Shown: positions 5,874-21,175, numbered from the stretch's first letter. The stretch is DNA of 64,000 bases from Candidatus Entotheonellaceae bacterium (GCA_965238075.1 OZ250173.1:1920001-1984000), one strand, 5' to 3'. The notes: generated from the letters alone by a model not told the origin. Numbers and translations are program-made.

Positions 5874-6737
5874 TCAACCGACCCCGTGGCTGCTGCCGTA
5901 CCCGTTGCTGGACAACGGCTGCCAGCTCGCCAGATGCTCTGCCCGCGGGCGGTGGATTTCGATGCGCAGCGGATGGCACGTCGAAGCGTCGCTGGAGTGG
6001 CCGGTACCGCAATCGCCGCCCGGACAGCTGGACAGCGCCGCCAGCAGATCGATTTCGGCGAACAGCTCGATGAAATCCCCCGCCCGCGAAGGGCTCGCCT
6101 TCATGAAGTACTGGTTCGTGTCGCGCGTGTAGCCGGTACACATGAAGACATTGACCACGTCGTGCACATGCGTTTCGGCCTCGGCGAGCGGCAGGTTCCT
6201 CGCCGCGGCCAGGGCTCGAGTGAGATTCGAATGGCAGCAATAATGGTAGTTGCCGCCCGTCAGCAGAAAATTCGTGTAGGGATCGCAGCGGGTGCCGATG
6301 ACGTCATGCACGCCGGCGCCGAACTCGTCGATGCCGTACCAGTCCAGGGTATCGTGGGTGATGGTCGCCATCGGGCGCAGCCATGGAAAGGTGCTCCACA
6401 GCCGGTCACCGGTGCTGACGTGGGTCGCGTGCAGGGCACGGGTCTTGCCGCTGTAGAACCGCTCGCGGAGGTCGGAGGCGTTCCACAGGTTCAGGTCGCC
6501 GACCTGCGAGCCTTCGGCGGTGATGATGCGAAACAGATGTCCGGCCGGGACCTCGAATGCCCGTGCATCGCGAGGCGGCACGGTCAACTCCTGCACCAGG
6601 GTGAGGTCGCTTCGAACCGTCTCGTAGAACGTCCGATCGAACGGTGGAAGTCTGTCCAGGGTGTAGACCGTCACGGGTTCGATCGCCCGCCGAGCAGCCG
6701 CGTCGGCAGGTTCGGGATTCTGCGCTGCAATTGCCAT
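5874..6737 (-). CDS. DUF1989 / urea carboxylase-associated family protein
   Basis: QVGDLNLWN, HDVIGTRCDPY, CCHSNL, HDVVNVFMCTG, SSCPGGDC. Confidence 0.88.
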   Translation of the reverse strand: MAIAAQNPEPADAAARRAIEPVTVYTLDRLPPFDRTFYETVRSDLTLVQELTVPPRDARAFEVPAGHLFRIITAEGSQVGDLNLWNASDLRERFYSGKTRALHATHVSTGDRLWSTFPWLRPMATITHDTLDWYGIDEFGAGVHDVIGTRCDPYTNFLLTGGNYHYCCHSNLTRALAAARNLPLAEAETHVHDVVNVFMCTGYTRDTNQYFMKASPSRAGDFIELFAEIDLLAALSSCPGGDCGTGHSSDASTCHPLRIEIHRPRAEHLASWQPLSSNGYGSSHGVG

Positions 6738-6822
6738 GGTTTGCTCCGGTTACTCGATGTGGCACGCCCGGGGGCCACGAGGAAGAGTAGCGCTACGGCG
6801 TGCTCCGACCGCTACCACTGCG

Positions 6823-6973
6823 AGGGGAGTACCAAAAAGCGTGGGACATTCAGGGGCGCACGGTTCAGGTTCGGACGCTCTGTCCCAGATACCTTCGGTC
6901 CTTGGTGCCGCGGCTCGAATTTCTCTTACCCACACAGATCCGTACTCCCGCCCCCACTTTTTGGTACTCTCCT
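6823..6973. mobile_element. Putative MITE (~150 bp) with ~21-bp terminal inverted repeats
   Basis: AGGGGAGTACCAAAAAGCGTGGG (6823-6845) vs reverse complement of 6953-6973, AGGAGAGTACCAAAAAGTGGG; no ORF inside; no TSD seen. Confidence 0.7.
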
Positions 6974-7044
6974 ATGACCTGAGATTGACCCAGGACTTCC
7001 TGGGGCATCGCGACCCCACACCCGCCAAGAAAGCAAGAGGTACA

Positions 7045-7221
7045 GGACATGTCGAGAACACTGATTTCCTCGTTTCCGACCGCGGCCTGGTTCCCCGAGC
7101 GCTGGCGTGTGTCGGCAGCTATTTGCGCGACATTCGTCCTGCGGCGACGATGATGGTAGCAGGCTTGATCGAAGAGGAGATGAAGATCGAGATCGAGTTG
7201 ACGGCACTTCGCCAAAGTTGA
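7045..7221 (+). pseudogene. RidA/YjgF family C-terminal fragment
   Basis: ...LRDIRPAATMMVAGLIEEEMKIEIELTA; N-terminus missing. Confidence 0.75.
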
Positions 7222-7318
7222 CCTGTCCCAACCCGAGGCCATCTGGCCCAAGACGAGCCGGCAACGTAAGTCCAAGTATTTGCCATGTCGGGTACAAACC
7301 AAGCTGAGGACAAAGGCA

Positions 7319-8143
7319 ATGAGATTCTTGAAGAATGTGGGTAAGCACGGGCTGCTGGGACTGTGCATCGTCATCGGGGTCATCGTTTGCAGCAACACGA
7401 GCGGCATGTCTCAGGGTGATGCCGAGGGCGGCGCGACAGCATCGGCTATGGAATCAATGCCAATCGGATGCAGCCGCGGACACGACATCAGGCCCGGAGA
7501 TGCCTGCGCATGGACGCTCGAGGGAGATGAGGTCGAGATTCATGCCGCGATGGACGGCTGCGCTCAGGTGAGCTTGAGGAAGGTTGGGCAATCCGATCCC
7601 GAGCCTGGACCTCGGCTGTGCCCGGGAGGCTCGGACTATTCCAAGCGCGGTCTTTCTGAAGCGCACGCCGGCGAGACGATTGTCGCGTCAGCCATGGACG
7701 CACCGATGTGTGGGATGATCTCGATCTCAGGCCTCAGTGTCGACTTCAATGGTACCGATATCCACATATGGCCGGGACTGGACCTGAACCAACTGGTCGT
7801 GCACTGGAACGGCGCGCACTGGTCCGTGAAGGAGACGCCGAGCCAGGAATGGATCCATCCGAGGCGTGTTGTCGAAGTGCCTGCCTGCCAGCCCGGACAG
7901 CGCCTGAGATCGAATGACGTCTGTCGTTACGAAGGACACGTTGCCGTGATCGGCCGCCAAGGCAACCGGGTCGACGTGTGGGAAAATGGCAAGGATCAGC
8001 CGGAGAGGTGGGTGGTAGATCCGAATGGGTCCTGCTACGTCATGGCGTCCATGAGCGCTCGTTCCTTTTCATCGCTCGCGTTCGCGGGTCTCCGCCTGAT
8101 TTGGGATGACGCCGAAAGTACGTGGACAGTCGTCGCGCCGTGA
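7319..8143 (+). CDS. Secreted/membrane-anchored cysteine-rich hypothetical protein with two internal repeats
   Basis: Hydrophobic N-terminus; repeats CSRGHDIRPGDAC / CQPGQRLRSNDVC. Confidence 0.6.
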   Translation: MRFLKNVGKHGLLGLCIVIGVIVCSNTSGMSQGDAEGGATASAMESMPIGCSRGHDIRPGDACAWTLEGDEVEIHAAMDGCAQVSLRKVGQSDPEPGPRLCPGGSDYSKRGLSEAHAGETIVASAMDAPMCGMISISGLSVDFNGTDIHIWPGLDLNQLVVHWNGAHWSVKETPSQEWIHPRRVVEVPACQPGQRLRSNDVCRYEGHVAVIGRQGNRVDVWENGKDQPERWVVDPNGSCYVMASMSARSFSSLAFAGLRLIWDDAESTWTVVAP

Positions 8144-8147
8144 TCGA

Positions 8148-8204
8148 CCGGTTGGACAGGGCAAGCAGAGCGCGGAGTTGGCTAACAGTGCTGTTCCGCT
8201 GCCG
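8148..8204 (+). repeat. ~57-bp dispersed repeat, copy 1
   Basis: Differs from copy 2 (18943-18999) at two positions. Confidence 0.85.
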
Positions 8205-8809
8205 CAACGGGAGTCGCGAGCCCCGACCGCTCGATCTCGCCGTGACGCGGGCGAGGCTTCGGGGGCTACGGGCTGCGGCTTTCCTTGCGCTATGCCTTCT
8301 GAGACGAAGGACGGGACGGATAGAGATCGACCGGACGCTGTTCATGACGGCCTCCGGCCGCGATGTCGACTACCAGGGGCGTCATCGCAAGGTTTGTACC
8401 CAGAATTACCCTTCAGGGGGGGCAGTACGACGTGACAAGGGGCAAAAACGGCCCCCTGTGGGGAATGTCCGTCGACTTTGGCCCCAGGAATTCGGTCAGG
8501 TCTTCGCCTCCAGAGAGGCAACCCCGGCCTTTTGTCCCTGTCGTCCCAAATTCCCCCGCCTCACTCCGCCCGGGCAGCTTGTGAGGGCCTCCTGAGGGTC
8601 TGCGATCCGGACCGTGGTCAGCCCCGCTTTCAGCGCTTTGCGCCGCGGAATCTCCCACTTACACCCCACCCAGGGCCTGATAGTCGTCCTTTCAGGCCTT
8701 TTCCGTCCCACCCTTTTGAGGCAAGGTCTACGTCCTTATTAGGGGTGGAGATTTTGCGGTGGGACGCCGATCGCGACTGCCGTTTGGTCCAGCAACGGCG
8801 CGGATCCAA

Positions 8810-8838
8810 CTTTTACATAATGGGGCCTTATCAGAAGT
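8810..8838 (-). other. dif-like XerC/XerD site (7-bp spacer)
   Basis: Minus strand ACTTCTGATAA-GGCCCCA-TTATGTAAAAG. Confidence 0.55.
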
Positions 8839-8917
8839 GAATTGAATCACGATCACGAAGCGTCGACCCGAGGGCACTCGTCTACGTAGAACTTCCGCCG
8901 GACCTGCCGGTTCCCCC

Positions 8918-9480
8918 TGACCGGCCCCCATGGAGTGGTCCAGCCCGAATGTTAGTTCATAGACAGTGTCGGCTCCAATGAATACCTGACAGGGCTTGTT
9001 AGAACACCCTGGATTGGCCACAGACCGTCAGGCTGCCGGGTTGCCCGCTCAGCCAACGCCGGCACCACCACTTCCGGCGCCGGCGATCGATAGCCAAGCG
9101 AGCCATGCGGCCTCACCCTGCTGTAGTGCCGACGTCAACTCTCAATCACGACCTGTGCCTCCCGCAACGTGTAGAAGATCTCACCATTCAGTAGCTCGTC
9201 ACGCAGCCGCGCATTGAAACTCTCCACATAGCCGTTCTCCCATGAACTGCCAGGCGCAATGTAGGCCGTCCTGGCACCCAGCGCGGCGATCCACTCTTGC
9301 ACGGCTTGGGCGATGAACTCCGGACCATTGTCGGAGTGGATGTACCCCGGCACACCCCGCAGCATGAACAACTCCGACAGCAGCTCGATGACGTCGACTG
9401 ACTTGAGCCGCCGCGCCACCGCATGGCAAGACATTCACGCGTGTACTCGTCAACCAAGTTGAGCACGGCAATGCCCGCTC
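8918..9480 (-). mobile_element. Truncated IS3-family element (3' part of orfB plus terminal IR)
   Basis: [27 protein letters not shown] integrase core; IR TGACCGGCCCCCATGGAGTGGTCCA at 8918. Confidence 0.9.
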
Positions 9481-9502
9481 CGGTCATCGACCAGGACGGC
9501 TT

Positions 9503-10261
9503 CTACTGCGCCACCCAGCCGCCGTCCACGACGAGCTCGCTGCCCGTCACGAAGCGGGACTCGTCGGAGGCCAGGTAGAGAACGGCGTAACCCACGTCGT
9601 CGGGCTGGCCGAATCTACCGAGCGGTACCCGCGACAGCATCGACTGGTAGGCGTTGGGGTCGGACCGCCGCCTTTCGTTCATGGGTGTAGCGATCGGACC
9701 GGGATGAACGGAGTTGACCCGTATACCCTCTTTGGCGTACTGAAGGGCGGTCAATTTGGTCAAGGTGCGCACTGCGCCTTTCGAAGCCTGATATTGCGGG
9801 GTGCTATCGATCGCACCCACCAGCCCATATTGGGAGGAAATGTTAATGATGGAGCCGCCTCCTGAGTTGCGCATCTCCGGTATGGCCACCTTGGTCCCCA
9901 GAAATACGCCCTTGGCGTTGATGTCCATTACCCTGTCCCAGTCTGCCTCGGAGGTTTCTTCCACCAAGCTGCTAACGACGCTGATGCCGGCGTTGTTGAC
10001 CAGGACGTGCAGCCCGCCGAAGCGGGACGTGGTGACAGCGACGGCTTCGTGCCAATTGGCCTCGCTGGTCACGTCCAGGTGAACGAAGACGCAGGCCCCG
10101 CCGCTTTCGTTAATCTCAGCCTCCACTTGGCGGCCTTGGTCGTCCAGGACGTCGCCAATTGCGACCTTGGCGCCTTCCTTGGCGAACAGTCGAGCCTCGG
10201 CGGCGCCCATGCCGCGAGCACCGCCACTGATGAATGCTACCTTCCCGTCAAGTCTGCCCAT
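9503..10261 (-). CDS. SDR family oxidoreductase (3-alpha/20-beta-HSD or cyclopentanol dehydrogenase-like)
   Basis: SGGARGMG, NNAG, YQASKG, VNSVHPG, VVDGG. Confidence 0.92.
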   Translation of the reverse strand: MGRLDGKVAFISGGARGMGAAEARLFAKEGAKVAIGDVLDDQGRQVEAEINESGGACVFVHLDVTSEANWHEAVAVTTSRFGGLHVLVNNAGISVVSSLVEETSEADWDRVMDINAKGVFLGTKVAIPEMRNSGGGSIINISSQYGLVGAIDSTPQYQASKGAVRTLTKLTALQYAKEGIRVNSVHPGPIATPMNERRRSDPNAYQSMLSRVPLGRFGQPDDVGYAVLYLASDESRFVTGSELVVDGGWVAQ

Positions 10262-10423
10262 TGTGAACCCCTCAAAAGAAAGCGCTTGATTGTATCCGTT
10301 CGGACCGGTGCTCAGCTTTGCAGCAAGGCCACACGGGTAGCTTCGTAGCCGGAGCCGTTTTCCACCACGTCCACTTCCACCGCGGTGCCATGGTTGTCAA
10401 GCGTCCGCGCGGCTTCGCCGGGC

Positions 10424-11670
10424 TGATCGGCCCCCACGGAGTGGTCCAGTCCGAATGTTAGTTCATAGCCAGTGTCGGCTCCAATGAATACCTGACAGGG
10501 CTTGACAGAACACCCCGGATTGGCCACAGACCGCCAGGCTGCCCAAGTGGCCAGCCAGCCATCGCAGGCACCACGACCTCCGGCGAAGGCGCCCGGTAGC
10601 CAAGCGAGGCATGCGGCCTCACCCTGTTGTAGTGCCGTCGCCAACTCTCAATCACAACCTGTGCCTCCCGCAGCGTGTAGAAGATCTCACCATTGAGCAG
10701 CTCGTCACGCAACCGCGCATTGAAACTCTCGACATAGCCGTTCTCCCACGGACTGCCAGGCGTGATGTAGGCCGTCTTGGCACCGAGCGCGGCAACTCAT
10801 CCTTGCACAGCCTCAGCGATGAACTCCGGACCATTGTCGGAGCGGATATACCTCGGCACACCGCGCAAGATGAACAACTCCGCCAACATCTCGATGACAT
10901 CGACAGATTTGAGCCGGCGCGCCACCCGCATGGCGAGACATTCGCGGGTGAACTCATCGACGGCGTTGAGCATCCGGTACTTGCGCCCGTCATGGCTGCG
11001 GTCCCGGGCGAAGTCATAGCTCCACACATGGTTTACATGCTCGACTCGCAAACGCATGCACGAGCCGTCGGCGAGCCACAGGCGCCGACGCTTGGGTTGT
11101 TTGGCCGGCACCTTGAGCCCCGCACGCCGCCAGATGCGCTCGACCCGCTTGTCGTTGACCACCCAGCCGGCCTCAACACGCAGCAACTCGGCGATCTTGC
11201 GATAGCCGTAGCGGCCATAGGACCGGGCCAGGGTGATGATGTCTTCGGTCAGGCGGGCCTCATCATGACGCCCCTGCGGCGGCTTGCGCTGCGTCGAACG
11301 GTGCTGTCCGAGTGCCCGGCAGGCACGGCGCTCCGAGACACCCAGTTGGTCTCGGATATGCTCGACACAGAGACGGCGGCGTGCGGGGGCTCAGAAGTTT
11401 CCCCGTGCGGCCTCCTGCAAGATGACGTTGTCCAGGGTCAGGTCGGATACGGCGCGGCGCAGGCGGGCGTTTTCGGTTTCGAGTTCCTTGAGGCGTTTGA
11501 CCTGACTGATCTTGAGGCCGCCGAACTCCTGTCGCCAGCGATAGATGCACGTCGACCTAGCGGAGCTTCGCTACAATCTCTTCTGGCTTGTATCGCTTCT
11601 TTGGCATGATGGTCCTCCTGTATGCTCTTCACACAACATCAGGATGGACCACTTCAAGGGGGGCGGGTCA
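10424..11670 (-). mobile_element. IS3-family insertion sequence, full length but inactivated
   Basis: Terminal IRs TGATCGGCCCCCACGGAGTGGTCCA and TGACCCGCCCCCCTTGAAGTGGTCCA; orfA has an in-frame TAG and a deletion; orfB (WSYDF, RSDNGPEF) is frameshifted. Confidence 0.92.
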
Positions 11671-11743
11671 GTGCGGCATCAGCACTACGACGACGAGGAT
11701 TTAGACCCCCGGCCCGTCGCGTCCTAGGTCCAGGAGGGAAGAA

Positions 11744-12193
11744 ATGGCTATGGGTGAGAGACGTACTGTGACAATTGACCAATGTTGCCTGATTGACCTA
11801 GAGGAGCATCGTCCTGACGCTCGCTATGTTGAAGCCCTGATAGATGCCTGGAGGTGCGGACGAATTGACTTGGCTGTGTGCGCAATAGGCGCCACGGAAA
11901 ACACGAAAGACTACTTCCCGGTGGAAACTTACGATGGCTTTAGGCAGCGATTAAGGAACATCGGTTTGGGGGATGTACCCGAGATTCTTCCCTTCGCTCG
12001 TTGGGGCCTGTTCTTTTGGGGCCACGCATTATGGGGCGACGACCAGACGAAAGACCTGGAAAGAAGAATATGGGAGGTCCTCTTTCCTAATTGCGAGTGG
12101 AAGCCAGAATTTAACCGGACACATGCCGGCGAGCCTGCGGCGACCTTTCCCCTTGGGTCGACAGAAGGGGGCGGCCTGATTGGCGATTTCTGA
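11744..12193 (+). pseudogene. PIN-like domain protein, apparently C-terminally truncated
   Basis: N-terminal TIDQCCLIDLEE resembles PIN beta1-D motif; distal acidic FVTxD motif absent; AGGAGG RBS. Confidence 0.5.
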
Positions 12194-12207
12194 AATGGCT
12201 TCTGAAT

Positions 12208-13488
12208 TCACTTCTCGAACGTTCGCATCACTCGAAAGCCGATCTTGGAGGAGTGCTCGTCGGGCACATTCGCGTGACGGCGGCCAGAACGATTATCCAG
12301 CGGTTTATCCTTCCAGGAGCCGCCACGCACGACACGCCTGGCGCAATTTCCGGTACCCCACGCCCGACCGTCTTCGGGCGCCCCATTGTAATGGCTGTTA
12401 TAGCAGTCCAGTGTCCACTCACTGGCATTTCCATGTATATCGTGGAGACCAAAGGCATTCGCCTCAAAAGACCCCACTTCCAGCGTTCGCCCCCTATATA
12501 TATCTGAAGTGAGAACGCCGCTACGGCGCCAATCGTATCGCCCGTCATAGTTGGCCTGTTCAGACGTGATTGACTGGCCTGTGTGAAACAGGGTCGTCGT
12601 GTTGGCTCTCGCCACGTATTCCCACTCCGACTCGCTCGGTAGTCGGTAATCCATACCCGTCCGGCCAGACAGCCAGTCTGTATACGTCTTCGCTTCATGC
12701 CAGGTCACGTGGGTGACGGGTCGCTTCCCGTTTCTCGGCCCCTTATGCCTGTCGAGGGTAATAGAACTGCAGCCGCCTTCGTTGACACAGGCATCCCACT
12801 CCGCAAGAGTGACCTCATATGCGCCGACGGCAAATGAATAGGAAATTTCCACGGCATGCCTTGGTTCTTCATTAACCTTAGCGTCTTTTTCCGAGGGTCC
12901 CGAACCCATAAAGAACTTGCCCGGCGGTATTGAAGCCATTTCGGGACAGTGATCATCGCAGTCTCGAAATGAAACGGGACCCCGCAACAGCAACCCGACT
13001 GATTCTTGGCTGAGGAAACCCGTCTGCGTCTCACCGCGAGACTTCTGCCAGCAGCTTATTGCGCCGCGCGTCCGTGCATCAAATAACAGGGCGACCTCTT
13101 CACTGGGTTCGCATCCGGATTGCGCCAAATGATATTTGATCCAACGAATTTGCCAGCGCTCCAGATTCAGCTCTGCCTCTTTGACTTTTGCGATGTCGCT
13201 TTCAAGAATGATTTTCAGCTTCTGCAATATCTCTCCCTGTCTCTCACCGGCAGCGACAAGAAGCTGCTTCGTGACCGTCATGCGTTCCCGGTTGTCTTCG
13301 GCCTGTTGCTTCAGCAGGTTCGCCTGCTCTCTCAGTTCCTCTACTTCGATGTCAATATCAGCCAAGCGATTTCGTATGGTGAAGAAGTTGACCACCTGGA
13401 ACGCAACCAGGATGAGGACCGTCAAAAGGACTGCGAGGACTAATGGATTCCGCAAGGAAAATGCACCAGGATCTTGGCCTTCACGCAC
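12208..13488 (-). CDS. Membrane-anchored FGE-sulfatase (SUMF1/C-type-lectin fold) domain protein with coiled coil and PG-binding-like segment
   Basis: TM; coiled coil; FDARTRGAISCWQ...TG; FRDCDDHCPEM, YRLPSESEWEY, NAFGLHDIHGN, RGGSW, IGFRV. Confidence 0.88.
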   Translation of the reverse strand: MREGQDPGAFSLRNPLVLAVLLTVLILVAFQVVNFFTIRNRLADIDIEVEELREQANLLKQQAEDNRERMTVTKQLLVAAGERQGEILQKLKIILESDIAKVKEAELNLERWQIRWIKYHLAQSGCEPSEEVALLFDARTRGAISCWQKSRGETQTGFLSQESVGLLLRGPVSFRDCDDHCPEMASIPPGKFFMGSGPSEKDAKVNEEPRHAVEISYSFAVGAYEVTLAEWDACVNEGGCSSITLDRHKGPRNGKRPVTHVTWHEAKTYTDWLSGRTGMDYRLPSESEWEYVARANTTTLFHTGQSITSEQANYDGRYDWRRSGVLTSDIYRGRTLEVGSFEANAFGLHDIHGNASEWTLDCYNSHYNGAPEDGRAWGTGNCARRVVRGGSWKDKPLDNRSGRRHANVPDEHSSKIGFRVMRTFEK

Positions 13489-13621
13489 TAGCTTCTCCTT
13501 TCTCGTTGGCGTCTGAAAATTGAAGCAATACCCAAGGGAAGTCGATCAAGTGCCAGACACGTACGGCGACCGGTACAGTAAACAGGCTGAAGGCGCCAAT
13601 CCGGACGGGGGCAAGCAGGGC

Positions 13622-13870
13622 TGACCCAGCCCCTTGAATCCGGGCCGCGGTGCTGTAGAGTCCATTGGAGTTGGGAGAATGGGTTCTATGAAGCGCCGAT
13701 TCACGGACCAACAGATCATCGGCATGATCCGGGAGCAAGAAGGGGGATTGAAGACCTCCGAGGTTTTCCGCAAGTATGGTACCAGCGACGCTACCTTCTA
13801 CAAGTACAAAGCCATGTTCGGCGGTATGACCGTGTCGGATGCAAGGAAGCTAAGGGCTCTGGATGTCCTC
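13622..13870 (+). mobile_element. IS3-family left end with truncated orfA
   Basis: Starts TGACCCAGCCCC; MKRRFTDQQIIGMIREQE...SDATFYKYKAMFGGM. Confidence 0.85.
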
Positions 13871-13899
13871 TTACTCTTCTAGACTAACGAACAGATCGG

Positions 13900-14589
13900 A
13901 TGGTTTCAATGGGCCTGCATACAACTCTACAAGCCTTTGCCAACACTGTGACAGCCAAAATGGCACAGGTGACACCTGGCTCGCCAGAAGACCAGATACG
14001 CGCCCCATTTGAGACCTTCATAGCCGCTGCCGCCCAGGCTTTGGGCTGGAACGTCGTCTGCACGGGTGAAACGCCCCTGCCCGACCGCCTCGGGCGCCCG
14101 GATTACGCCGTTCATCTCAACCAATTACTGGCTGGATATGTCGAACTCAAGGCCCCCGGCGTCGGCGCCACCGCCAGTCGGTTCAAGGGGCGTAACCGAG
14201 ACCAGTTCATTCGCTTCTCAGTCATCCCGAACCTTCTCTACACCGACGGCAATGAATGGGCGCTTTACCGAGACGGCCAGCTTGTGGACCGGGTTGTTCA
14301 TCTGTCGGGCGATGTTATGGCTGACGGCAGTAAGGCCGCCACGCTCCATGACGCACATGCTGTCGAACGCCTGTTGCGCGACTTCCTCTCGTGGCAGCCG
14401 TTTATCCCCACCGACCACACGGGCAAGATCGACCTCCAGGGCTTTGCCGCAATGGTGGCCCCGTTGTGCCGCATGTTGCGTGACGACGTGACCGAAGCCC
14501 TCAAGCGCCCGGCTTCGTCCCTGGTACAACTGGCGCAGGACTAGCGGCAACTGCTCTTCCCGGATGCCTCGGACGATCAGTTTGCCGAT
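13900..14589 (+). pseudogene. N-terminal fragment of a type ISP / N-6 DNA methylase restriction-modification enzyme
   Basis: PEDQIRAP, GRPDYAV, GYVELKAPG, LYTDGNEW; TAG at 14542 replaces the expected W, and the frame continues RQLLFPDASDDQFAD until interrupted. Confidence 0.8.
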
Positions 14590-16063
14590 ACACCTACCTG
14601 CCGAGCGGCGGCCCCATCCCGCTGCACCGCTATCGCAAGCCGCGTGCGTCGGCGACCCAGCAACGCGCTGACCGCATCGGTGACTTGGCCCGCAAGCTGT
14701 CAGTGCCGCGGGCGGCCCTGAGCGGGGTGGACGATAGCCTGGCGCGCGCTGCCGACGCGGTGCCGCTGCGCCGCCAACCCTTTGTCGACCCCGACCCTTA
14801 TGGACAGTTCACCTATGGCGGCCGCCTCGAGGCGCTGCGCGGCGTCTCAGACCTGCTGCATCGGCCCTTGACGCGTCTGGCCGAGGACGACCTCGACTTC
14901 ATCAACGCGCTCGTGGAGCGCACCCTCGACAAGGCCGCCATCGAGCAAGCCGTCCTTGAGCGGTTTCTGCCGAAACGGCCCGCCGCAAGCAAGGAGAACG
15001 CGCGATGCTGAATGCCGAAATCATGGCGCGATACGCGCTGGCGAAGGACTGGCGCAGTGCGGGATTCTATGAGACCGAAAACCACCGTCAGATCGGGCGG
15101 ACGGTGCGCGCCGGCCTCGGCGCCGGTCGCCTAATTGCCATCACCGGCCCGATTGGCGTCGGCAAGACCGTCTTCCTGCATCGTTTGCAGGACGAGATCG
15201 CCAGTGAGAAGAAGGTGGTGGTGGCCGAGAGCCTGTCGGTCGACACCAACCGGACCACCGTGCCGACGCTGATCGCTGCCCTGTTCTACGATCTGTCACG
15301 CGAAAAGGAGCTGAAGATCCCCACCCAGGGCGAAAAGCGCGAACGCGAGCTGCGAAAGCTCGTGCTGCGCGGCGGCAAGCCGGTCGCCCTGTTCATCGAT
15401 GAAGCCCATGGTCTGCATAGCAGAAACCTGAACGGACTCAAGCGGCTGATGGAGGTGATCGCCCGTGGCGGCGGCAGCCTGTCCGTGGTGCTGATCGGGC
15501 ATCCGAAGCTGCGCAACGACCTGCGCCGTCCGACCATGGAGGAGATCGGCCACCGCACCGACATCCTGTCCTTTGAGGGCCTCGGTGAGGACGCGCCCGC
15601 CTACCTGGACTGGCTGCTCGCCGAGTGCACCGAGGCGGACACCGACGTCGATGCCCTGATCGAGCCCGCGGCCCTGGACCTGATGGCACTCCGACTGACC
15701 ACGCCGCTGCAGTTTGCCGAGCACCTCAACCGTGCCTTTGAGGCCGGCTTCCGCACCGGCCAGAAGCCGATCACCGCCGAGATTGTCGCCGCCACGCTGG
15801 CGCCTGATTTTGACGACCTCGAACCGCGGCTGACCCGCCAGGGCTATTCCGTCAAGGTGCTGGCTGACCAGTTCCATGCCAAGCCCAGTGAGATCCGCCG
15901 TTTCCTGGGCGGCCAACTCGACGCCGGTCGTACCCGGGAGCTTGCCGACCGGATGCGCGCTGTCGGGCTGGCCGTGTGACGCGCGCCGTCTGTTCGCACG
16001 GCGACGGTTTCAGTCTCAATAATGTGAGCCGAAAACGGCGATGATCTTGTCTGTAAAGTGTCA
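14590..16063 (+). mobile_element. Remnant of IS481-like transposase + ExeA-family ATPase element
   Basis: GGPIPLHRYRK transposase C-terminus (14590-15011) coupled to an AAA ATPase; element ends ...GTAAAGTGTCA. Confidence 0.7.
15005..15979 (+). CDS. ExeA/TniB-like AAA ATPase with C-terminal HTH (transposon helper)
   Basis: Walker A GPIGVGKT, Walker B LFIDEAH, LIGHPKL. Confidence 0.85.
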   Translation: MLNAEIMARYALAKDWRSAGFYETENHRQIGRTVRAGLGAGRLIAITGPIGVGKTVFLHRLQDEIASEKKVVVAESLSVDTNRTTVPTLIAALFYDLSREKELKIPTQGEKRERELRKLVLRGGKPVALFIDEAHGLHSRNLNGLKRLMEVIARGGGSLSVVLIGHPKLRNDLRRPTMEEIGHRTDILSFEGLGEDAPAYLDWLLAECTEADTDVDALIEPAALDLMALRLTTPLQFAEHLNRAFEAGFRTGQKPITAEIVAATLAPDFDDLEPRLTRQGYSVKVLADQFHAKPSEIRRFLGGQLDAGRTRELADRMRAVGLAV

Positions 16064-17260
16064 CCAGTCCGAGGCATGAACGCCCCGGAGAGGTAGCGGT
16101 GGTCGGACCGTCATGATCTGGGTCGACTGGGGCCGTGCTTGAGTGGGGTCGCCACCGCCCTTCCCAGTGTCCTGAATGGTTACATGAGCATCAAGGCTCG
16201 CATGACAAGAACAGGAGAGGAAGGATGACGGATCATATCCTTGGCGTTGACATCTCGAAAGCCAACCTGGCCGTCCATCTCGTCCCGACAGGCGAAACCC
16301 AGCAATTCGCTAACAACACCGTCGGCTTCCGCCGCCTTATCGCTTGGCTCCGGGGTCGCCCCGTAGGCCGCGTGGTCTACGAGCCCACGGGAGCTTGGCA
16401 TCGAGATTTCGAGCGAGTGCTTGGCAACGCCGGCTTGCCCCTGTCACGAGTCAATCCGTTGCAGGCACGGCGTTTTGCGCAAGCACTGGGGCAAAAGGCC
16501 AAGACAGATGCTGTTGACGCCCGGATCTTGGCGGCAATGGGCCAAGTGCTTGACCTGCCCCGCTCCAGACCACCCTCGCAGTGGCAGACTGAACTCCGGG
16601 AGCTGCACACAGCTCGACTGGCACTGGCCAAGGATCGAACGGCAACGCTGAACCGCCAGAAACAGGCGCGCGTCCCCTTGCTCAAGCGTCAATGCGCAAG
16701 CCGTCTGCGGCATATCGAGCGCCAACTCAAAGCCCTTGAGGCCGAGATGGCAAAGCACGTCAAGGCCGATCCTGCGCAAGCGCGGGCGTTCGAGATACTG
16801 AACTCGATCCCGGGAATCTCGGTCATCACCGCCGTCGCCGTGCTCTCGGAGCTCCCGGAGATTGGCTCGCTCGACCCCAAGGCCGCGGCCAGTCTGGCCG
16901 GCCTGGCGCCAGTCACGCGGCAATCCGGCACCTGGCAAGGGCACAGCTTCGTCCAAGGGGGCCGGCGAAGGCTGCGCCAGGCGCTCTACATGCCGGCTGT
17001 CTCAGCGATCTCATGTAACCCTGACCTGGCCCGGAAGTATCGCCAGCTCTGCCAGGCCGGCAAGCCGCCGAAGGTGGCGATCACCGCTGTCATGCGCAAG
17101 CTCTTGCTGCTTGCCAATGCGCTGATTGCCCAGGATAGAATTTGGGCAGCCACTCCGCCAACGTGTGCGTAAGCCCGGCCACGGCGCAGAGCGACGCTCG
17201 GCCCACCTTGAAACGGGCTCACCGGAGGAACAACATATCGCGTTGACAACAGGGTTACTC
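16064..17260 (+). mobile_element. IS110-family element
   Basis: ~160-bp structured non-coding left end, recombinase gene, right end TTGACAACAGGGTTACTC. Confidence 0.85.
16225..17172 (+). CDS. IS110 DEDD recombinase/transposase, intact
   Basis: GVDISK, YEPTG, KTDAVDA, SIPGI, RQSG, RQALYM, AVMRKL. Confidence 0.95.
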   Translation: MTDHILGVDISKANLAVHLVPTGETQQFANNTVGFRRLIAWLRGRPVGRVVYEPTGAWHRDFERVLGNAGLPLSRVNPLQARRFAQALGQKAKTDAVDARILAAMGQVLDLPRSRPPSQWQTELRELHTARLALAKDRTATLNRQKQARVPLLKRQCASRLRHIERQLKALEAEMAKHVKADPAQARAFEILNSIPGISVITAVAVLSELPEIGSLDPKAAASLAGLAPVTRQSGTWQGHSFVQGGRRRLRQALYMPAVSAISCNPDLARKYRQLCQAGKPPKVAITAVMRKLLLLANALIAQDRIWAATPPTCA

Positions 17261-17551
17261 AAGCCGCCACAGGTAGGGGACCGGAGATGCCGTTGTCTGC
17301 CGTTACGTAACGCTTGGTATTGGCTACTGAGCCAGTATCTCGGGAGGTGAAGTAGCGACAGCTTGCGCTGTGAGTGAGCTGTGAGTGGGAGGAGCAACAT
17401 GTCGTATTGACAACATGGTTACTCAAGCCCGACGGCCGATAATCTCAGGTCGCTACAGGTAGGGGTGTGCAGCAAGACTTTGCTGAAGCCGTGAAGTGGT
17501 TTCGCAAGGCGGTTGAGCAAGGCCTCGACCCAAGTACAACCTAGGCGTCGC

Positions 17552-17737
17552 ATGGCGCGGGGTGTACCGCATGACTTCGTCGAGGCAACGAAATGGTACC
17601 GCAACGCAGCTGAGCAGGGCTTCGCCAAAGCGCAATACAATGTGAAAAATGGCGCGGGGTGTACCGCATGACTTCGTCGAGGCAACGAAATGGTACCGCA
17701 ACGCAGCTGAGCAGGGCTTCGCCAAAGCGCAATACAA
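17552..17737 (+). repeat. Exact 89-bp tandem duplication (period 97 bp) of a Sel1 repeat
   Basis: 17552-17640 identical to 17649-17737. Confidence 0.9.
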
Positions 17738-18167
17738 CTTGGGCGTCCTGTATGACAATGGCCCGGGGGACTTACCGGAGGACAATGCCGAGGAAGTAAA
17801 GTGGTACCGCAAGGCCGCCGAACAGGGAGTCGCCTTAGCGCAGAGCAATCTGGGCCTTATGTATGCCAAGGGCGAGGGCGTGGAGCAGAATTATGTCGAA
17901 GCCGTGAAATTGTACCGTAAGGCGGCCGAACAGGGCGTTGCTTTAGGACAACACAATCTGGGACTTATGTATAACCTTGGCGAGGGTGTGCCACAGGACG
18001 ACGTTCAGGCCTACGCTTGGTTCAATACCGCTGCCGCTCAAGGGAACGAACTTGCCAAGGAAAATAAGGAGCGCGTCGCTGAGTCCATGACCCGCGAAGG
18101 ACGCGCCCGCGCACAAGAACTTGCGCGCCAGTACTGGGAAGCCTACGTGCTGCCTTTCCGAAACTGA
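17649..18167 (+). CDS. Sel1/TPR repeat protein; 5' part broken, with degenerate repeats from ~17463
   Basis: Repeated WYRKAAEQG..AQ.NLG.MY..GEGV. Confidence 0.88.
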   Translation: MARGVPHDFVEATKWYRNAAEQGFAKAQYNLGVLYDNGPGDLPEDNAEEVKWYRKAAEQGVALAQSNLGLMYAKGEGVEQNYVEAVKLYRKAAEQGVALGQHNLGLMYNLGEGVPQDDVQAYAWFNTAAAQGNELAKENKERVAESMTREGRARAQELARQYWEAYVLPFRN

Positions 18168-18235
18168 CCCACGCGGCCCTGCGGCAGTAACATAACGCAT
18201 CCGAACCAGCCAGCCGCCCCTCCGGGCGGGGTTAT

Positions 18236-18371
18236 CGAAGGCGATCTGGCCTTACGGAAGTTGTCAGTAACCACTATCCAGCCGCCCCTCCGGGACATTC
18301 TCCGGAGGGGCTTTTTTACGTCCGAAGGCGACATATCTGGCCTTATCGGAAGTTGTCAGGTAACCACTATC
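18236..18371. repeat. Tandem direct repeat carrying a dif-like site and GC hairpins
   Basis: CGAAGGCGA(CATA)TCTGGCCTTA(T)CGGAAGTTGTCAG(G)TAACCACTATC at 18236-18278 and 18323-18371, each preceded by CAGCCGCCCCTCCGGG; second hairpin followed by a T-run. Confidence 0.8.
18326..18353 (-). other. dif-like XerC/XerD site
   Basis: Minus strand ACTTCCGATAA-GGCCAG-ATATGTCGCCT (11-6-11). Confidence 0.6.
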
Positions 18372-18403
18372 TGGACGGGAGGTAAGCCGAAATCATGGCC
18401 GGT

Positions 18404-18610
18404 TCAACGGACACTCGTGGCCTCGGGCTCGCGATCGGGCCGTCGGGTCGGACGCCTGGCCAACTCGCCACTGCAATTGGGGCAGGTGGCATCCATCGAG
18501 GTTGTGCACCTCGGGCAGAAGGTGCACTCGTAGGAACAAATGAACGCCTCCGACACATGCGTCAGCGGCGCGTGACACCTTTCGCACTCCGTTCTCATCT
18601 CCAGCGCCAT
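18404..18610 (-). CDS. DUF1272 domain small cysteine-rich protein
   Basis: MALEMRTECERC...ICSYECTFC..C.....CPNCSGEL..RP; AGGAG RBS. Confidence 0.88.
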   Translation of the reverse strand: MALEMRTECERCHAPLTHVSEAFICSYECTFCPRCTTSMDATCPNCSGELARRPTRRPDREPEATSVR

Positions 18611-18737
18611 CTCCGTAACATGCTCCTACACGAGGCAGCGTCAAGCTGCCGACCCTGAGCGAGTGACCGCCGATCCTGCCGGCGATGCCGCCAACAGAGG
18701 GATAAGCCCAAGCTTGCGGCAGGGCGAGGTGAGGCAA

Positions 18738-18765
18738 AGGCTACATAAAACAGCTTATCGGAAAT
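18738..18765 (-). other. dif-like XerC/XerD site
   Basis: Minus strand ATTTCCGATAA-GCTGTT-TTATGTAGCCT (11-6-11). Confidence 0.65.
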
Positions 18766-18955
18766 GGCCGCACAAGCTGAATCCAGACCAACCACAACCC
18801 TGGCCAAGATCAAGGAATGGTTCGCACTCGCCAGCCTCATAGTGGTCCTTGCAGGCGGTATCGCCGCCGGTCTGCTCGGCGGCATGAAACTCGTGATCGC
18901 GCCCCTGCAGTCAGATATCCGGGCCATCCACAGCCGTCTCGACCGGATGGACAGG
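18764..18955 (+). pseudogene. TM + coiled-coil protein fragment, truncated at the 57-bp repeat
   Basis: WFALASLIVVLAGG...APLQSDIRAIHSRLDRMD; same architecture as 38729-39145. Confidence 0.5.
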
Positions 18956-18999
18956 GCAAGCAGAGTGCGGAGTTGGCTAACAGTGCTGTTCCGCTGCCC
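18943..18999 (+). repeat. ~57-bp dispersed repeat, copy 2
   Basis: Matches 8148-8204. Confidence 0.85.
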
Positions 19000-19035
19000 C
19001 AGGCGACTGGTTCATACCTCCAAGGGCGCAACACC

Positions 19036-19824
19036 CTACAGGCTCATGCCGCCATCCAGAAAAAGGGTCTGTCCGGTCATGTAATCGGACGCGGCCGACG
19101 CGAGATAGAGCGCCAGATAGCCCACCTCGCGCAGTTCGCCGGGGCGTGTCAAGGGCACCCTGCGCGCCGCCATGTCCTTGGCTCGCTGCATCCCGTCGTC
19201 GCCGACCGTCACCGGATCGGGGAAAATGCCCGGCGCGATACTGTTCACGTGCACCCCATACGGCGCCCATTCGAGCGCCTGCGCCCGCGTAAAGCCGGAC
19301 AAGCCCGTCTTAGCAATTGAGTACACCACCATGTCGCCGCCGCCTTGCCGGGCGGTCCAGGACGAAATGTTGATCACCTTGCCCGATCGGCGCTCCAGCA
19401 TGTGCGGCCCGACGGCGCGGGTGCACAGGATCGCCTCGGTGAGATTGACGTCCATAACGCGGTTCAGTTCCTCGTCGGTCAAGGCAGCCGTTTCTTGCCC
19501 GGGCAGGGCCACCAGCGGCTTGTAAATGGCGTCACCCAGATTATTGATCAGAACGTCAATCCGCCCAAAGGTCTCCATGACCAGGTCGATCGCCTGTTGC
19601 ACACCGTCGGTGTTGGTGACGTCCGCGATCACCGGTACCACCTTGCGGCCGCTGGCTTCGGCGATCTCGGCCGCAACGCCCTCGACGTAGCGCGGGGTCA
19701 GCGAGTTGATCGCCACATCGGCGCCGGCCTCGGCGAGCACCCGGGCGATGCCCTTGCCGATGCCCCGCCCCGCTCCGGTAATGAAAACCACTTTGTCGGT
19801 CACATCAAAAGCTTCTGGAAGCAT
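19036..19824 (-). CDS. SDR family oxidoreductase
   Basis: TGAGRGIG, YSIAKTG, VNSIAPG, LDGG. Confidence 0.92.
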   Translation of the reverse strand: MLPEAFDVTDKVVFITGAGRGIGKGIARVLAEAGADVAINSLTPRYVEGVAAEIAEASGRKVVPVIADVTNTDGVQQAIDLVMETFGRIDVLINNLGDAIYKPLVALPGQETAALTDEELNRVMDVNLTEAILCTRAVGPHMLERRSGKVINISSWTARQGGGDMVVYSIAKTGLSGFTRAQALEWAPYGVHVNSIAPGIFPDPVTVGDDGMQRAKDMAARRVPLTRPGELREVGYLALYLASAASDYMTGQTLFLDGGMSL

Positions 19825-19876
19825 GATTCAATTCCTTGAAGGTGGGTGTTGCCGATCCGTCGCACGGCTACTCGCC

Positions 19877-20860
19877 CTACGGCATCAGGATGGTTGAGCC
19901 TGTGGTCTTGCGCGCTTCCAGGTCGGCGTGGGCCTGTGCCGTATCGCTCAACTTGTACCGCTGATTGATCTCGACTTTCAAAACACCGTCGGCGATCAAG
20001 CCGAAAAGCTCCGCGGCGTTGCGCGCTCGAACCTCGGGGTCCTTCACGAAGAAATACAGGCCGCCGCGTGTCACGTTTTGCGCTTTCATCGCCAGACGGG
20101 CGGTATTCAGCAGCGGCGCCGGCCCCGAGGATTGGCCATAGGAAACCATCCAGCCGCGTGCGGCCAACACATCGATGCCTTTATCAAACGTGTCCTTGCC
20201 GACGGCGTCATAAATGACATTGGCGCCTTTTCCTTGCGTGAGATCGAGCACCGCGTCGCCGAAATCAACCTCGCGATAAAGGATCGGGTGATCGCATCCG
20301 TGAGCCTGAGCCAAGGCGGCTTTTTCTTTGGTTCCCACCGTGCCGATTACGGTTGCGCCCAGATGCTTCGCCCATTGGCAAAGCAGCAGCCCGACACCGC
20401 CGGCGGCGGCATGGACCAGCGCTGTGTCTCCGGGTTTCACCTTATAGAGGTCGCGCACCAGATAATGCGCCGTCAGGCCCTGGAGCGTCGAGGCCGCGGC
20501 GATCTCTTCGGTCGTCCTGCCATCCAGTTTAATCAGGTGATTGGCGCCGATCAGCCGTTGTTCGGAATAGCTGCCGCGCACCATGCAATAGGAAACGCGG
20601 TCGCCGGCAGCAAAACCGGCCACCTCAGGCCCGACCGCATCGATCACGCCGGCGCCTTCCATGCCCAAGGCGACGGGCAGGTCGTTCATCGGATAGCCGC
20701 CGGATCGTTGTTGGATGTCGATATAGTTCAGGCCGACTGCGGTATGACGGAGGCGGACCTCACCGGCACCCGGATCGCCGACCGATACGTCCTCCCAACG
20801 CATGACTTCGGCCCCGCCCGTCTCGTGAATACGGATCGCTTTAACAGTCATTTCGGTCAA
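19877..20860 (-). CDS. qor: NADPH:quinone oxidoreductase (zeta-crystallin/MDR family)
   Basis: GLNYID, GMEGAG, HAAAGGVG, YGQSSG, RKTTGS. Confidence 0.9.
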   Translation of the reverse strand: MTEMTVKAIRIHETGGAEVMRWEDVSVGDPGAGEVRLRHTAVGLNYIDIQQRSGGYPMNDLPVALGMEGAGVIDAVGPEVAGFAAGDRVSYCMVRGSYSEQRLIGANHLIKLDGRTTEEIAAASTLQGLTAHYLVRDLYKVKPGDTALVHAAAGGVGLLLCQWAKHLGATVIGTVGTKEKAALAQAHGCDHPILYREVDFGDAVLDLTQGKGANVIYDAVGKDTFDKGIDVLAARGWMVSYGQSSGPAPLLNTARLAMKAQNVTRGGLYFFVKDPEVRARNAAELFGLIADGVLKVEINQRYKLSDTAQAHADLEARKTTGSTILMP

Positions 20861-20878
20861 GGTACTTCCTCCCCCACC

Positions 20879-21175
20879 TCACTGGATTAATCGTAACTGA
20901 CAACGCGGCGAACCGAACCGGCGACGGGCCGGTTGCATCACGTCTACTTGGCGCCCGTTGGCCGGATCTTTTTCCCGGCTGATGATTCGCCGCGTTTCAA
21001 GTCGACTCAGCCGGTCGGACAGCACGTTGGTCGAAATGCCTTCACCGGCATCCAGGAAGTCCTGAAACCGGGTAGAGCCGCGAAACATCAAGTCGCGGAT
21101 AATCAATAACGACCAGCGATCCCCGAAGACGCCGAGCGCAAACCGAATTGGGCATTGATTGGGTTCGTAAATCAT
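20879..21175 (-). pseudogene. HxlR-family winged-helix regulator, C-terminus degenerate
   Basis: CPIRFALGVFGDRWSLLIIRDL...GISTNVLSDRL; lacks the Y.LT.KG wing tail. Confidence 0.7.

Follow-up and report, generated by a model that had tools for sequence, protein, structure and literature searches.

Several mobile elements lack a recombinase of their own and exploit the XerC and XerD recombinases of their host. Such integrative mobile elements exploiting Xer (IMEXs) include CTX-phi, VGJ-phi and TLC-phi of Vibrio, the gonococcal genetic island and EcloIMEX/EludIMEX; Xer exploitation is known both from phage-like elements at the chromosomal dif site and from Acinetobacter resistance plasmids, and how modules move in those plasmids is disputed. 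Here we analyse a 64,000-nucleotide stretch of DNA, hereafter the window, from a Candidatus Entotheonellaceae bacterium (bases 1,920,001-1,984,000 of the single-contig genome G000; 3,352,321 bp, 62% GC). A sequence-only reading had singled out three dif-like sites in the window, here A, B and C, and proposed a Xer-mobilised cassette zone without a recombinase, a proposal now supported by the identity of the host dif, by polymorphism at the sites in relatives and by the lack of another intact tyrosine recombinase. Judging from the genome and its congeners, sites A, B and C probably constitute one of at least seven mobile gene-cassette arrays that carry no recombinase and use host XerC/XerD. Each site consists of a XerC arm, a short spacer and a XerD arm; a site whose near-consensus XerD arm adjoins a conserved element of ~200 nt (alignments A1 and A2) is termed an anchor.

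The arrays resemble IMEXs in having no recombinase of their own, in their apparent dependence on host XerC/XerD and in their directly repeated, dif-like flanking sites. Successive IMEX integrations likewise produce co-oriented tandem arrays with a good XerD arm at one end and degenerate element-side XerD arms. IMEXs, however, sit at the chromosomal dif, whereas dif is empty here (3.139 Mb) and the arrays occupy at least seven other loci. The units also differ, being gene cassettes of 0.4-9 kb without phage or replication genes, with anchors that bear the 200-nt element. A XafT-like DUF3653 protein was not found in G000, which is 93% complete.

In Acinetobacter, according to one report, a single chromosome carries 22 dif-like sites besides the main dif, together with module islands (PMC12907356). 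That report describes features also seen here, namely many extra dif-like sites in rows, modules containing accessory genes, insertion sequences (ISs) and toxin-antitoxin genes, and no dedicated recombinase (PMC12907356). The same module also recurs in different contexts, as do our DUF3187 and m1.32/m2.07 cassettes. In contrast, inverted sites that alternate between C/D and D/C delimit the Acinetobacter modules (PMC12907356), whereas 61 of 64 adjacent pairs in our data are direct. Neither an anchor element nor a rule for terminal sites is described for that system, whose setting is plasmid-centred and clinical.

Integrons provide a third comparison. As in integrons, entry appears to be reserved to one end of arrays with uniform orientation; a cassette contains one or a few genes, most of them pointing away from this end, its GC content is low, and arrays differ among close relatives. 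Unlike integrons, the system has no IntI, since the Xer proteins score 112-150 bits against an integron-integrase cut-off of 265; dif-like sites of 30 nt, not attC hairpins, mark its boundaries, and each genome has many small arrays instead of one. A search of open papers, with subscription journals and supplements outside its scope, found no description of Xer sites in Tectomicrobia or Entotheonella, nor of this integron-like, directly repeated architecture.

The host dif and its copies

All three dif-like strings were found on the minus strand exactly as the sequence-only reading had written them. They share the 10-mer TTCYGATAAG, which occurs three times in the window against an expectation of 0.09, a count reached by none of 100 shuffles. 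A two-arm weight matrix, made by coordinates from 21 matches of a motif regular expression to the whole genome, returned 28 sites at a score of at least 16 (the same 28 at a score of at least 20) and none in the reversed, non-complemented genome. Lower cut-offs gave 31 sites versus 3 in the reversed control (score ≥14) and 36 versus 8 (score ≥12). The 21 regular-expression sites match the matrix by construction because it was built from them, and seven of the 28 are independent of the building set. Shuffles, the reversed-genome control and pattern controls in congeners rule out a chance or background origin of the motif, which clearly exceeds its genome-wide background and has a consensus equal to the host's own dif.

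The highest matrix score, 45.8, belongs to a site at genome position 3,139,035-3,139,064 whose spacer (GTTATA) and flanks are rich in AT. Each of the six genomes of the genus set, comprising G000 and five congeners (G001-G005), holds a single, unchanged copy of its 24-mer, and xerD lies ~19.5 kb from it in every one. The site is roughly opposite the cumulative GC-skew minimum at ~1.54 Mb. On the basis of genus-wide conservation and xerD synteny, we identify it as the true chromosomal dif. It is solitary, with no second site nearby, and the window sites are 1.2 Mb away. An ftsK gene with a gamma domain is located at 3107666, 31 kb from dif, such that ftsK, xerD and dif all fall inside 32 kb (3107666-3139064).

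Flank and arm statistics were obtained from 116 sites, those of G000 plus loci of relatives that were fetched for holding a pattern match, and the set is therefore not a random sample. Spacers in this family are 6 nt (n=80), 7 nt (n=30), 5 nt (n=4) or 8 nt (n=2) long, and in the consensus the XerC arm (AACTTCyGATAA) is well preserved, whereas the XerD arm, beyond a spacer of 6-7 nt, varies more. Out of 12 arm positions, a mean of 10.3 agree with dif in the XerC arm and 9.7 in the XerD arm. With 12-nt arms and spacers of 7, 6 and 6 nt, sites A, B and C have the geometry of dif-type core sites (two arms of ~11-12 bp that form an imperfect inverted repeat around a 6-8 bp centre). Overall, a family consensus equal to the genus-conserved dif identifies A, B, C and the remaining sites as copies of the host dif, in agreement with the earlier designation of the strings as dif-like. 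That reading had also suspected an error in the G-run of the site A spacer. However, spacers of 7 nt occur in 30 of the 116 sites, so the length is not a sequencing error, and GGCCCCA itself recurs at the site at genome position 450043. The A/B spacer pair is in fact the pair found at 445778/450043, in the same order. No consistent pattern was seen between site strand and replication direction in G000.

Signs of exchange at site cores among congeners

We compared 80 nt on either side of the core for all pairs of the 116 sites, using a score threshold of 30 (null 99.9th percentile, 25.8). Among 6555 pairs, the XerC-side flank alone was shared in 27, the XerD-side flank alone in 88 and both flanks in two. 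Three sites in G003 have identical XerC-side flanks (80/80) that lead into three unrelated continuations. At the TRAP-transporter locus (L007), both outer flanks are common to all six genomes and the DNA between them differs; in G005, other cassettes replace the s2-s5 DNA, and homology stops at q13155 and resumes at q16184, the edges of s2 and s5. A DUF3187 cassette that G000 carries at its MiaB locus is part of the TRAP array in G001 and G003, with 96% identity versus 87-91% in flanking core DNA. In these three genomes its homology starts exactly at the XerD arm (TyATGTCGCCTT) followed by terminator-like sequence, and the XerC arm and spacer ahead of it differ. These alignments show homology breakpoints at site cores and the same cassette in different arrays.

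The congeners also differ in how many sites they carry. Under a stricter pattern, 25 sites were counted in G003, 18 in G001, 8 each in G000 and G002, 5 in G005 and 1 in G004, with 0-1 in controls. The only site in G004 is dif; at MiaB and HAD this genome has clean, unoccupied loci without any site. At the window locus, G001 has a degenerate ortholog of site A that is homologous on the XerD side and unrelated beyond the XerC arm (local scores of 65.5 versus 6.0), and G005 has three sites with two different small cassettes between equivalent boundaries. The whole block is missing from G002, where window position 8155 is joined to 19017 through 149 bp that hold the start of a small open reading frame (ORF) and no site. 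The breakpoint in G001, the other cassettes in G005 and the empty locus in G002 constitute polymorphism, by presence or absence and by replacement, that ends at the sites, as the sequence-only reading would predict. Separately, contig C35 of G003 (L141 3977-5464) joins the window-locus flank, with its 287-aa gene, to the MiaB-locus flank; a single XerC arm and one complete dif-like site lie at the junction, which is either a large between-array rearrangement or an assembly chimera of the metagenome-assembled genome (MAG).

Several observations weigh against mobile arrays operated by host Xer, in addition to the non-random composition of the 116-site set. The excess of pairs sharing only the XerD side partly reflects the shared anchor element instead of exchange, although the XerC-side cases do not. 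At its far end, homology of the DUF3187 cassette does not reach the next XerC arm but gives out ~70 nt ahead of it, and at loci L005 and L003 a gap of ~100 nt separates the end of homology with more distant congeners from the first site. No flanking sites could be detected around the DUF6988-cassette homologs of G001 and G005. Loci that are empty in relatives (the window locus in G002, L004 and L005 in G004, and the locus of the solitary anchor 3066948 in G005) have no dif-like site, which means that an anchor must first reach a locus by a route other than Xer integration at a site already there; neither target duplication nor terminal repeats were seen at 3066948. No A-to-B or B-to-C deletion or circle junction was present among the 15 of 88 joints listed for window positions 6000-21000 in assembled contigs (Logan) from four sponge-metagenome runs. 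Finally, for Xer-site cassettes of Acinetobacter plasmids, one study reports no excision in a direct test, even for a directly repeated pair, and plasmid cointegrates instead (PMC11705084). Joints spanning ~9.7 kb (10005-10019 / 19711-19756) were considered as a possible excision and rejected, being cross-matches of two SDR paralogs with 24-nt sides.

One alternative is that the arrays are fossil scars, whereby DNA entered in the past via Xer sites or plasmids with Xer modules, the arrays are now inert, and differences among genomes stem from homologous recombination, deletion and transfer of whole segments. The decayed A-B block (IS3 fragments, a truncated type IIG gene), the degeneracy of several sites such as L139:6932 in G001, homology edges 70-100 nt off some sites, mutually unlike spacers inside one array and the lack of a junction among the contig joints listed would all suit such a history. 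However, inert arrays sit poorly with a cassette that is 96% identical in different arrays across species with 87-91% core identity, with three continuations from identical XerC-side flanks in the single MAG population of G003, with the many contigs of that MAG that end near sites, and with site numbers from 1 to at least 25 among congeners. Cassette identity, flank variety, contig ends and the range of site numbers point to exchange that is recent and still under way at sites of 30 nt, a length too small for homologous recombination to be efficient, and we consider purely historical arrays unlikely.

Recombinases, anchors and a proposed cassette cycle

In searches with NCBIfam equivalog models, XerD of G000 scored 370 bits (cut-off 329.6) and XerC 337.5 bits (cut-off 335.15). 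PF00589 has five matches in G000, all outside the window, as expected from the earlier statement that the window holds no recombinase, and none within any G000 array. Besides the Xer proteins, the only matches are to a broken invertase-like gene (376,888-377,378) and, weakly, to a sequence interrupted by a stop codon. By these matches, XerC and XerD are the only intact tyrosine recombinases in G000, and no other intact one was found in G002 or G005. We infer that host XerC/XerD are the catalysts because both site arms follow dif, these three genomes have no other intact tyrosine recombinase and Xer exploitation is known elsewhere. The broken gene (L013/L014) is a frameshifted tyrosine recombinase of invertase type, 3 kb from the dif-like site at 373745, with intact 199-aa relatives in G001 and G003.

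A different recombinase might instead recognise the dif-like sites, either one not resident in G000 or one provided in trans, whether from a plasmid, from a phage or in the form of a small tyrosine recombinase of the lineage. G003 combines the most sites with 23 PF00589 matches, including 199-aa recombinases, one of which also occurs in G001, and the remnant in G000 lies close to a site. Nevertheless, G000, G002 and G005 have arrays without an intact small recombinase, the small recombinase of G001 is 11 kb from the nearest pattern site, and the G003 contigs that carry one have no pattern site. Furthermore, both arms track the host dif, as exploitation of Xer predicts. Together, this makes a different recombinase quite improbable.

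G000 contains at least seven arrays and several solitary sites. Considering G000 together with the fetched loci, 32 of 34 multi-site clusters are co-oriented, and the G000 clusters delimit segments of 0.36-9.5 kb. Small cassettes have a GC content of 41-51% versus 62% for the genome and hold one or two genes each, encoding DUF5677, DUF6988 (PADLOC PDC-S52), FRG-TPR (PDC-S15), a PDC-S31-matching family (twice), DUF3187 and an Ada-type methyltransferase. With crude ORF picking, 29 of 38 ORFs within G000 arrays are antisense to the sites, i.e. they read away from the anchor. Cassettes m1.32 and m2.07, at two different loci, are homologous to each other and have both site types in common, and one copy is IS-interrupted. 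PADLOC-matching cassettes (PDC-S52, PDC-S15, PDC-S31) lie at L007 13377-16190, L002 2477-3109 and L003 4480-4803, and the arrays may act as stores of defence genes. A 9-kb cassette (L007 4097-13127; genome 3289096-3298126) contains genes for a tryptophan-halogenase-type flavoenzyme, an AMP-binding enzyme, an O-methyltransferase and an alpha/beta hydrolase along with an ISKra4 insertion, and is common to G000 and G005 at 96% identity. Many cassettes are thus candidate phage-defence genes by family match, and one is a candidate biosynthetic set of 9 kb that includes a halogenase. Fragments of a group II intron reverse transcriptase/maturase (L001 3417-5509, genome ~446400-448500) are found within a 4.3-kb module between sites 445778 and 450043. 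A ~150-bp repeat at L005 1765-1916 has many copies of 82-89% identity in G000, G001 and G005 and looks like a miniature inverted-repeat transposable element.

The anchor element has 14 copies in G000 by profile search, of which 13 abut the XerD arm of a dif-like site and one is a partial orphan; none is at the true dif. In six of seven G000 arrays, including the window array with site A, no site lies further toward the XerD side than the one that bears the element. Five further element-bearing sites are solitary (148005, 555162, 1560275 with a partial element, 2954717 and 3066948). An invariant inverted repeat, CCCACCG ... CGGTGGG, occurs with fixed spacing and at fixed offsets of 45, 67 or 78 nt in 36 of the 116 sites; its form at site A is CCCACCG-N43-GGGTGGG, 45 nt from the arm. 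All five genus genomes with secondary sites possess the element; searches of G004 and of the 11 genomes from other genera that complete our phylum set of 17 did not find it. The element shows no codon periodicity, and no Rfam family reached its gathering score in window positions 1-30000, which include it. RNAalifold recovered only the invariant 7-bp stem, without covariation, single-sequence folds gave z-scores of +0.5 to -3.8, and the interior between the repeat arms folded no better than shuffles in most copies. The absence of covariation and the shuffle-like folding give no support for a structured RNA; the inverted repeat is possibly a protein-binding site. No sigma-70 consensus was present within the anchor elements of L004 and L007. 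If the element has a role, it might be that of an accessory sequence or of an expression signal.

A 101-aa ORF with a membrane anchor and a coiled coil follows the element at 4 of 13 G000 anchors (L004 4822-5127, minus strand; genome 3067318-3067456, 3288311-3288454 and 3297693-3297884) and is multi-copy in G002. As it is beside only these four anchors and not beside site A, we rejected it as an obligatory partner. The solitary platform at 3066948 (L185 3150-4319; genome ~3066650-3067818) is a 1.17-kb insertion after a terminator, made up of 346 bp, the site, the 200-nt element and a remnant of the coiled-coil ORF; it is absent from G005, which is 97% identical. One 8-bp repeat, a possible target duplication or terminal repeat, was found at the L004 junctions.

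It is very improbable that the sites are a dispersed regulatory or structural repeat, for instance a protein-binding motif by terminators that resembles dif through convergence, since, even though sites often adjoin terminators and the anchor inverted repeat is held at a fixed distance in the manner of a site for a DNA-binding protein, the two-arm geometry, the 6-7 nt spacers and a consensus equal to the genus-conserved dif are all specific, and neither the between-genome breaks in homology at cores nor the independent assortment of the two flanks would be explained.

For arrays worked by host XerC/XerD, we infer a cycle of Xer catalysis, circular intermediates and entry at the anchor. Recombination between two directly repeated sites would free a cassette as a circle with one site, and the circle would re-enter at the anchor site, with its near-consensus XerD arm and ~200-nt element. 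After the exchange, the array would still end in the anchor XerD arm and element, and the cassette's own XerD arm, often with a terminator, would mark the far side of the cassette. As the anchor arm and element are kept at the end, arrays would grow next to the anchor, just as integron arrays do at attI. The observed pattern fits successive integrations of circles into one anchor site, after which the first site would retain the XerC-side flank of the chromosome and the last site the anchor arm and element, with variable cassettes, each starting with its own XerD arm, in between. Unlike spacers at neighbouring sites (GGCCCCA, GGCCAG and GCTGTT in the window) and distance from the terminus would keep arrays mostly stable. 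In Escherichia coli, FtsK activates XerD at the terminus; by that precedent, any activity at arrays far from the terminus would be FtsK-independent or rarely activated. More tentatively, the system may be a form of integrase-free, integron-like capture, in which anchor platforms seeded at many loci recruit XerC/XerD without FtsK or the terminus to capture, stack and exchange circular cassettes, with the element as the licensing accessory sequence; we regard this fuller scheme as possible but short of probable.

The window locus and the wider lineage

Features of the window locus are collected below. Along the strand of the sites, the order is the SDR flank, a 401-bp segment with site C, a 69-aa ORF, site B, the terminator and Sel1 gene in reversed orientation, 9 kb of IS-riddled cargo, site A, the anchor element and the 287-aa gene.

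Features of the window locus (coordinates counted from the first base of the window)
Feature	Position	Strand	Remarks
63-bp direct repeat	8144..8206 and 18939-19001	+ (first copy)	95% identity; brackets whole block, one copy right behind 287-aa gene, the other right ahead of SDR gene
Anchor element at site A	8634..8808	-	~175-200 nt abutting XerD arm; nhmmer (profile from A2) genome 1928634-1928819, E = 7.4e-26
Site A	8809..8839	-	CACTTCTGATAA-GGCCCCA-TTATGTAAAAGT; anchor site, XerD-side end of array; XerD arm 10/12 versus dif
Cargo A-B	8840..18324		9.5 kb; GC 60.4% versus 65.3% in left flank
IS3 fragments	9135-9434 and 13634-13882		Within A-B cargo
SDR gene	9503-10261		Within A-B cargo
ORFs	10611-11609 and 11744-12193		Within A-B cargo; no Pfam, NCBIfam or PADLOC family match
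FGE-sulfatase-type gene	12208-13488		Within A-B cargo
Type IIG restriction-methylase fragment	13900-14544		Within A-B cargo; 214-aa N-terminal fragment
AAA_22 ATPase	15005-15979		Within A-B cargo
IS110	16135-17172		Within A-B cargo
Sel1-repeat gene	17649..18167	+	Pfam Sel1 E = 2e-35; last cargo gene, reads toward site B
Intrinsic-terminator-like hairpin	18284..18317	+	11-bp stem, 9 G-C pairs, then T run; ends 7 nt before site B XerD arm
Site B	18325..18354	-	AACTTCCGATAA-GGCCAG-ATATGTCGCCTT; internal site, recurrent variant XerD arm
69-aa cysteine-rich ORF	18405..18613	-	Between B and C; rubrerythrin-like match weak, below cut-off
401-bp segment with site C	18616..19016		Only in G000; absent from G001, G005; single-copy except 63-bp repeat
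Site C	18737..18766	-	CATTTCCGATAA-GCTGTT-TTATGTAGCCTT

The A-B stretch is, from its gene content, a decayed, IS-riddled mosaic rather than one clean cassette. The sequence-only reading had described a 9.5-kb integrase-less island, and the stretch indeed lacks an integrase and carries accessory genes, but it is a mosaic that ends in the Sel1 gene and its terminator. Of the cargo listed there, IS3, FGE, IS110 and Sel1 were recovered and a PIN-like gene was not, and the gene called type ISP is an N-terminal fragment of a type IIG restriction-methylase. Accumulation at this one locus, as first proposed, is borne out; the phenomenon is wider, extending across the genome, with anchors that the reading did not describe. 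Apart from a weak XerD-arm-like 12-mer at 14136-14147, no further arm-like half-sites were found inside the A-B cargo.

The end of the cargo at site B has counterparts elsewhere. The 3' part of the Sel1 gene has 73% identity to a Sel1 fragment beside the site at genome position 2654084, and the layout of a XerD arm followed by a terminator, as at Sel1 and site B, also starts the DUF3187 cassette in three genomes. The spacer and XerD arm of site B, with the adjoining ~45 nt toward the terminator, recur at 93% identity in the TRAP array of G001 (L144:10481), beside a different XerC-side flank. Contigs from metagenome runs X8 and X1 (window 18148-18331 and 18188-18283) hold variants around site B. 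In one, the terminator is replaced and the site has a consensus XerD arm; in the other, an additional dif-like sequence separates Sel1 from the terminator. Strains or related species may be their source.

On the other side of site B, the region of the 69-aa ORF (window 18406-18615) is 95-96% identical in G005 and G001, and its start is recognisable in G002. Its presence in that site-free genome implies that this gene is ancestral at the locus and not a captured cassette. A metagenome contig from run X2 joins 18611 to 19017. Homology with G000 is lost at window positions 8151-8155 in all five relatives.

DNA of this organism is present in sponge metagenomes from several studies, and a Candidatus Tectimicrobiota MAG has the same multi-site habit (loci L036, L045 and L070). 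As read from these genomes, the principle of Xer exploitation is a known one, and the layout appears to be new, in that it joins direct repeats, placement at many loci other than dif and an anchor element, and occurs in a lineage that is uncultured and associated with sponges. Direct repeats, terminal anchors and co-oriented cassettes that end in terminators predict excisable circles and ordered growth. Congeners with 1 to at least 25 sites, empty loci and a conserved, accessory-like element provide a natural contrast for what makes a Xer site excisable. The arrays also mark where the lineage keeps its variable genes, among them candidate defence genes and one biosynthetic set. If the proposed capture is true, it would represent a second, integrase-free route to integron-like gene capture.

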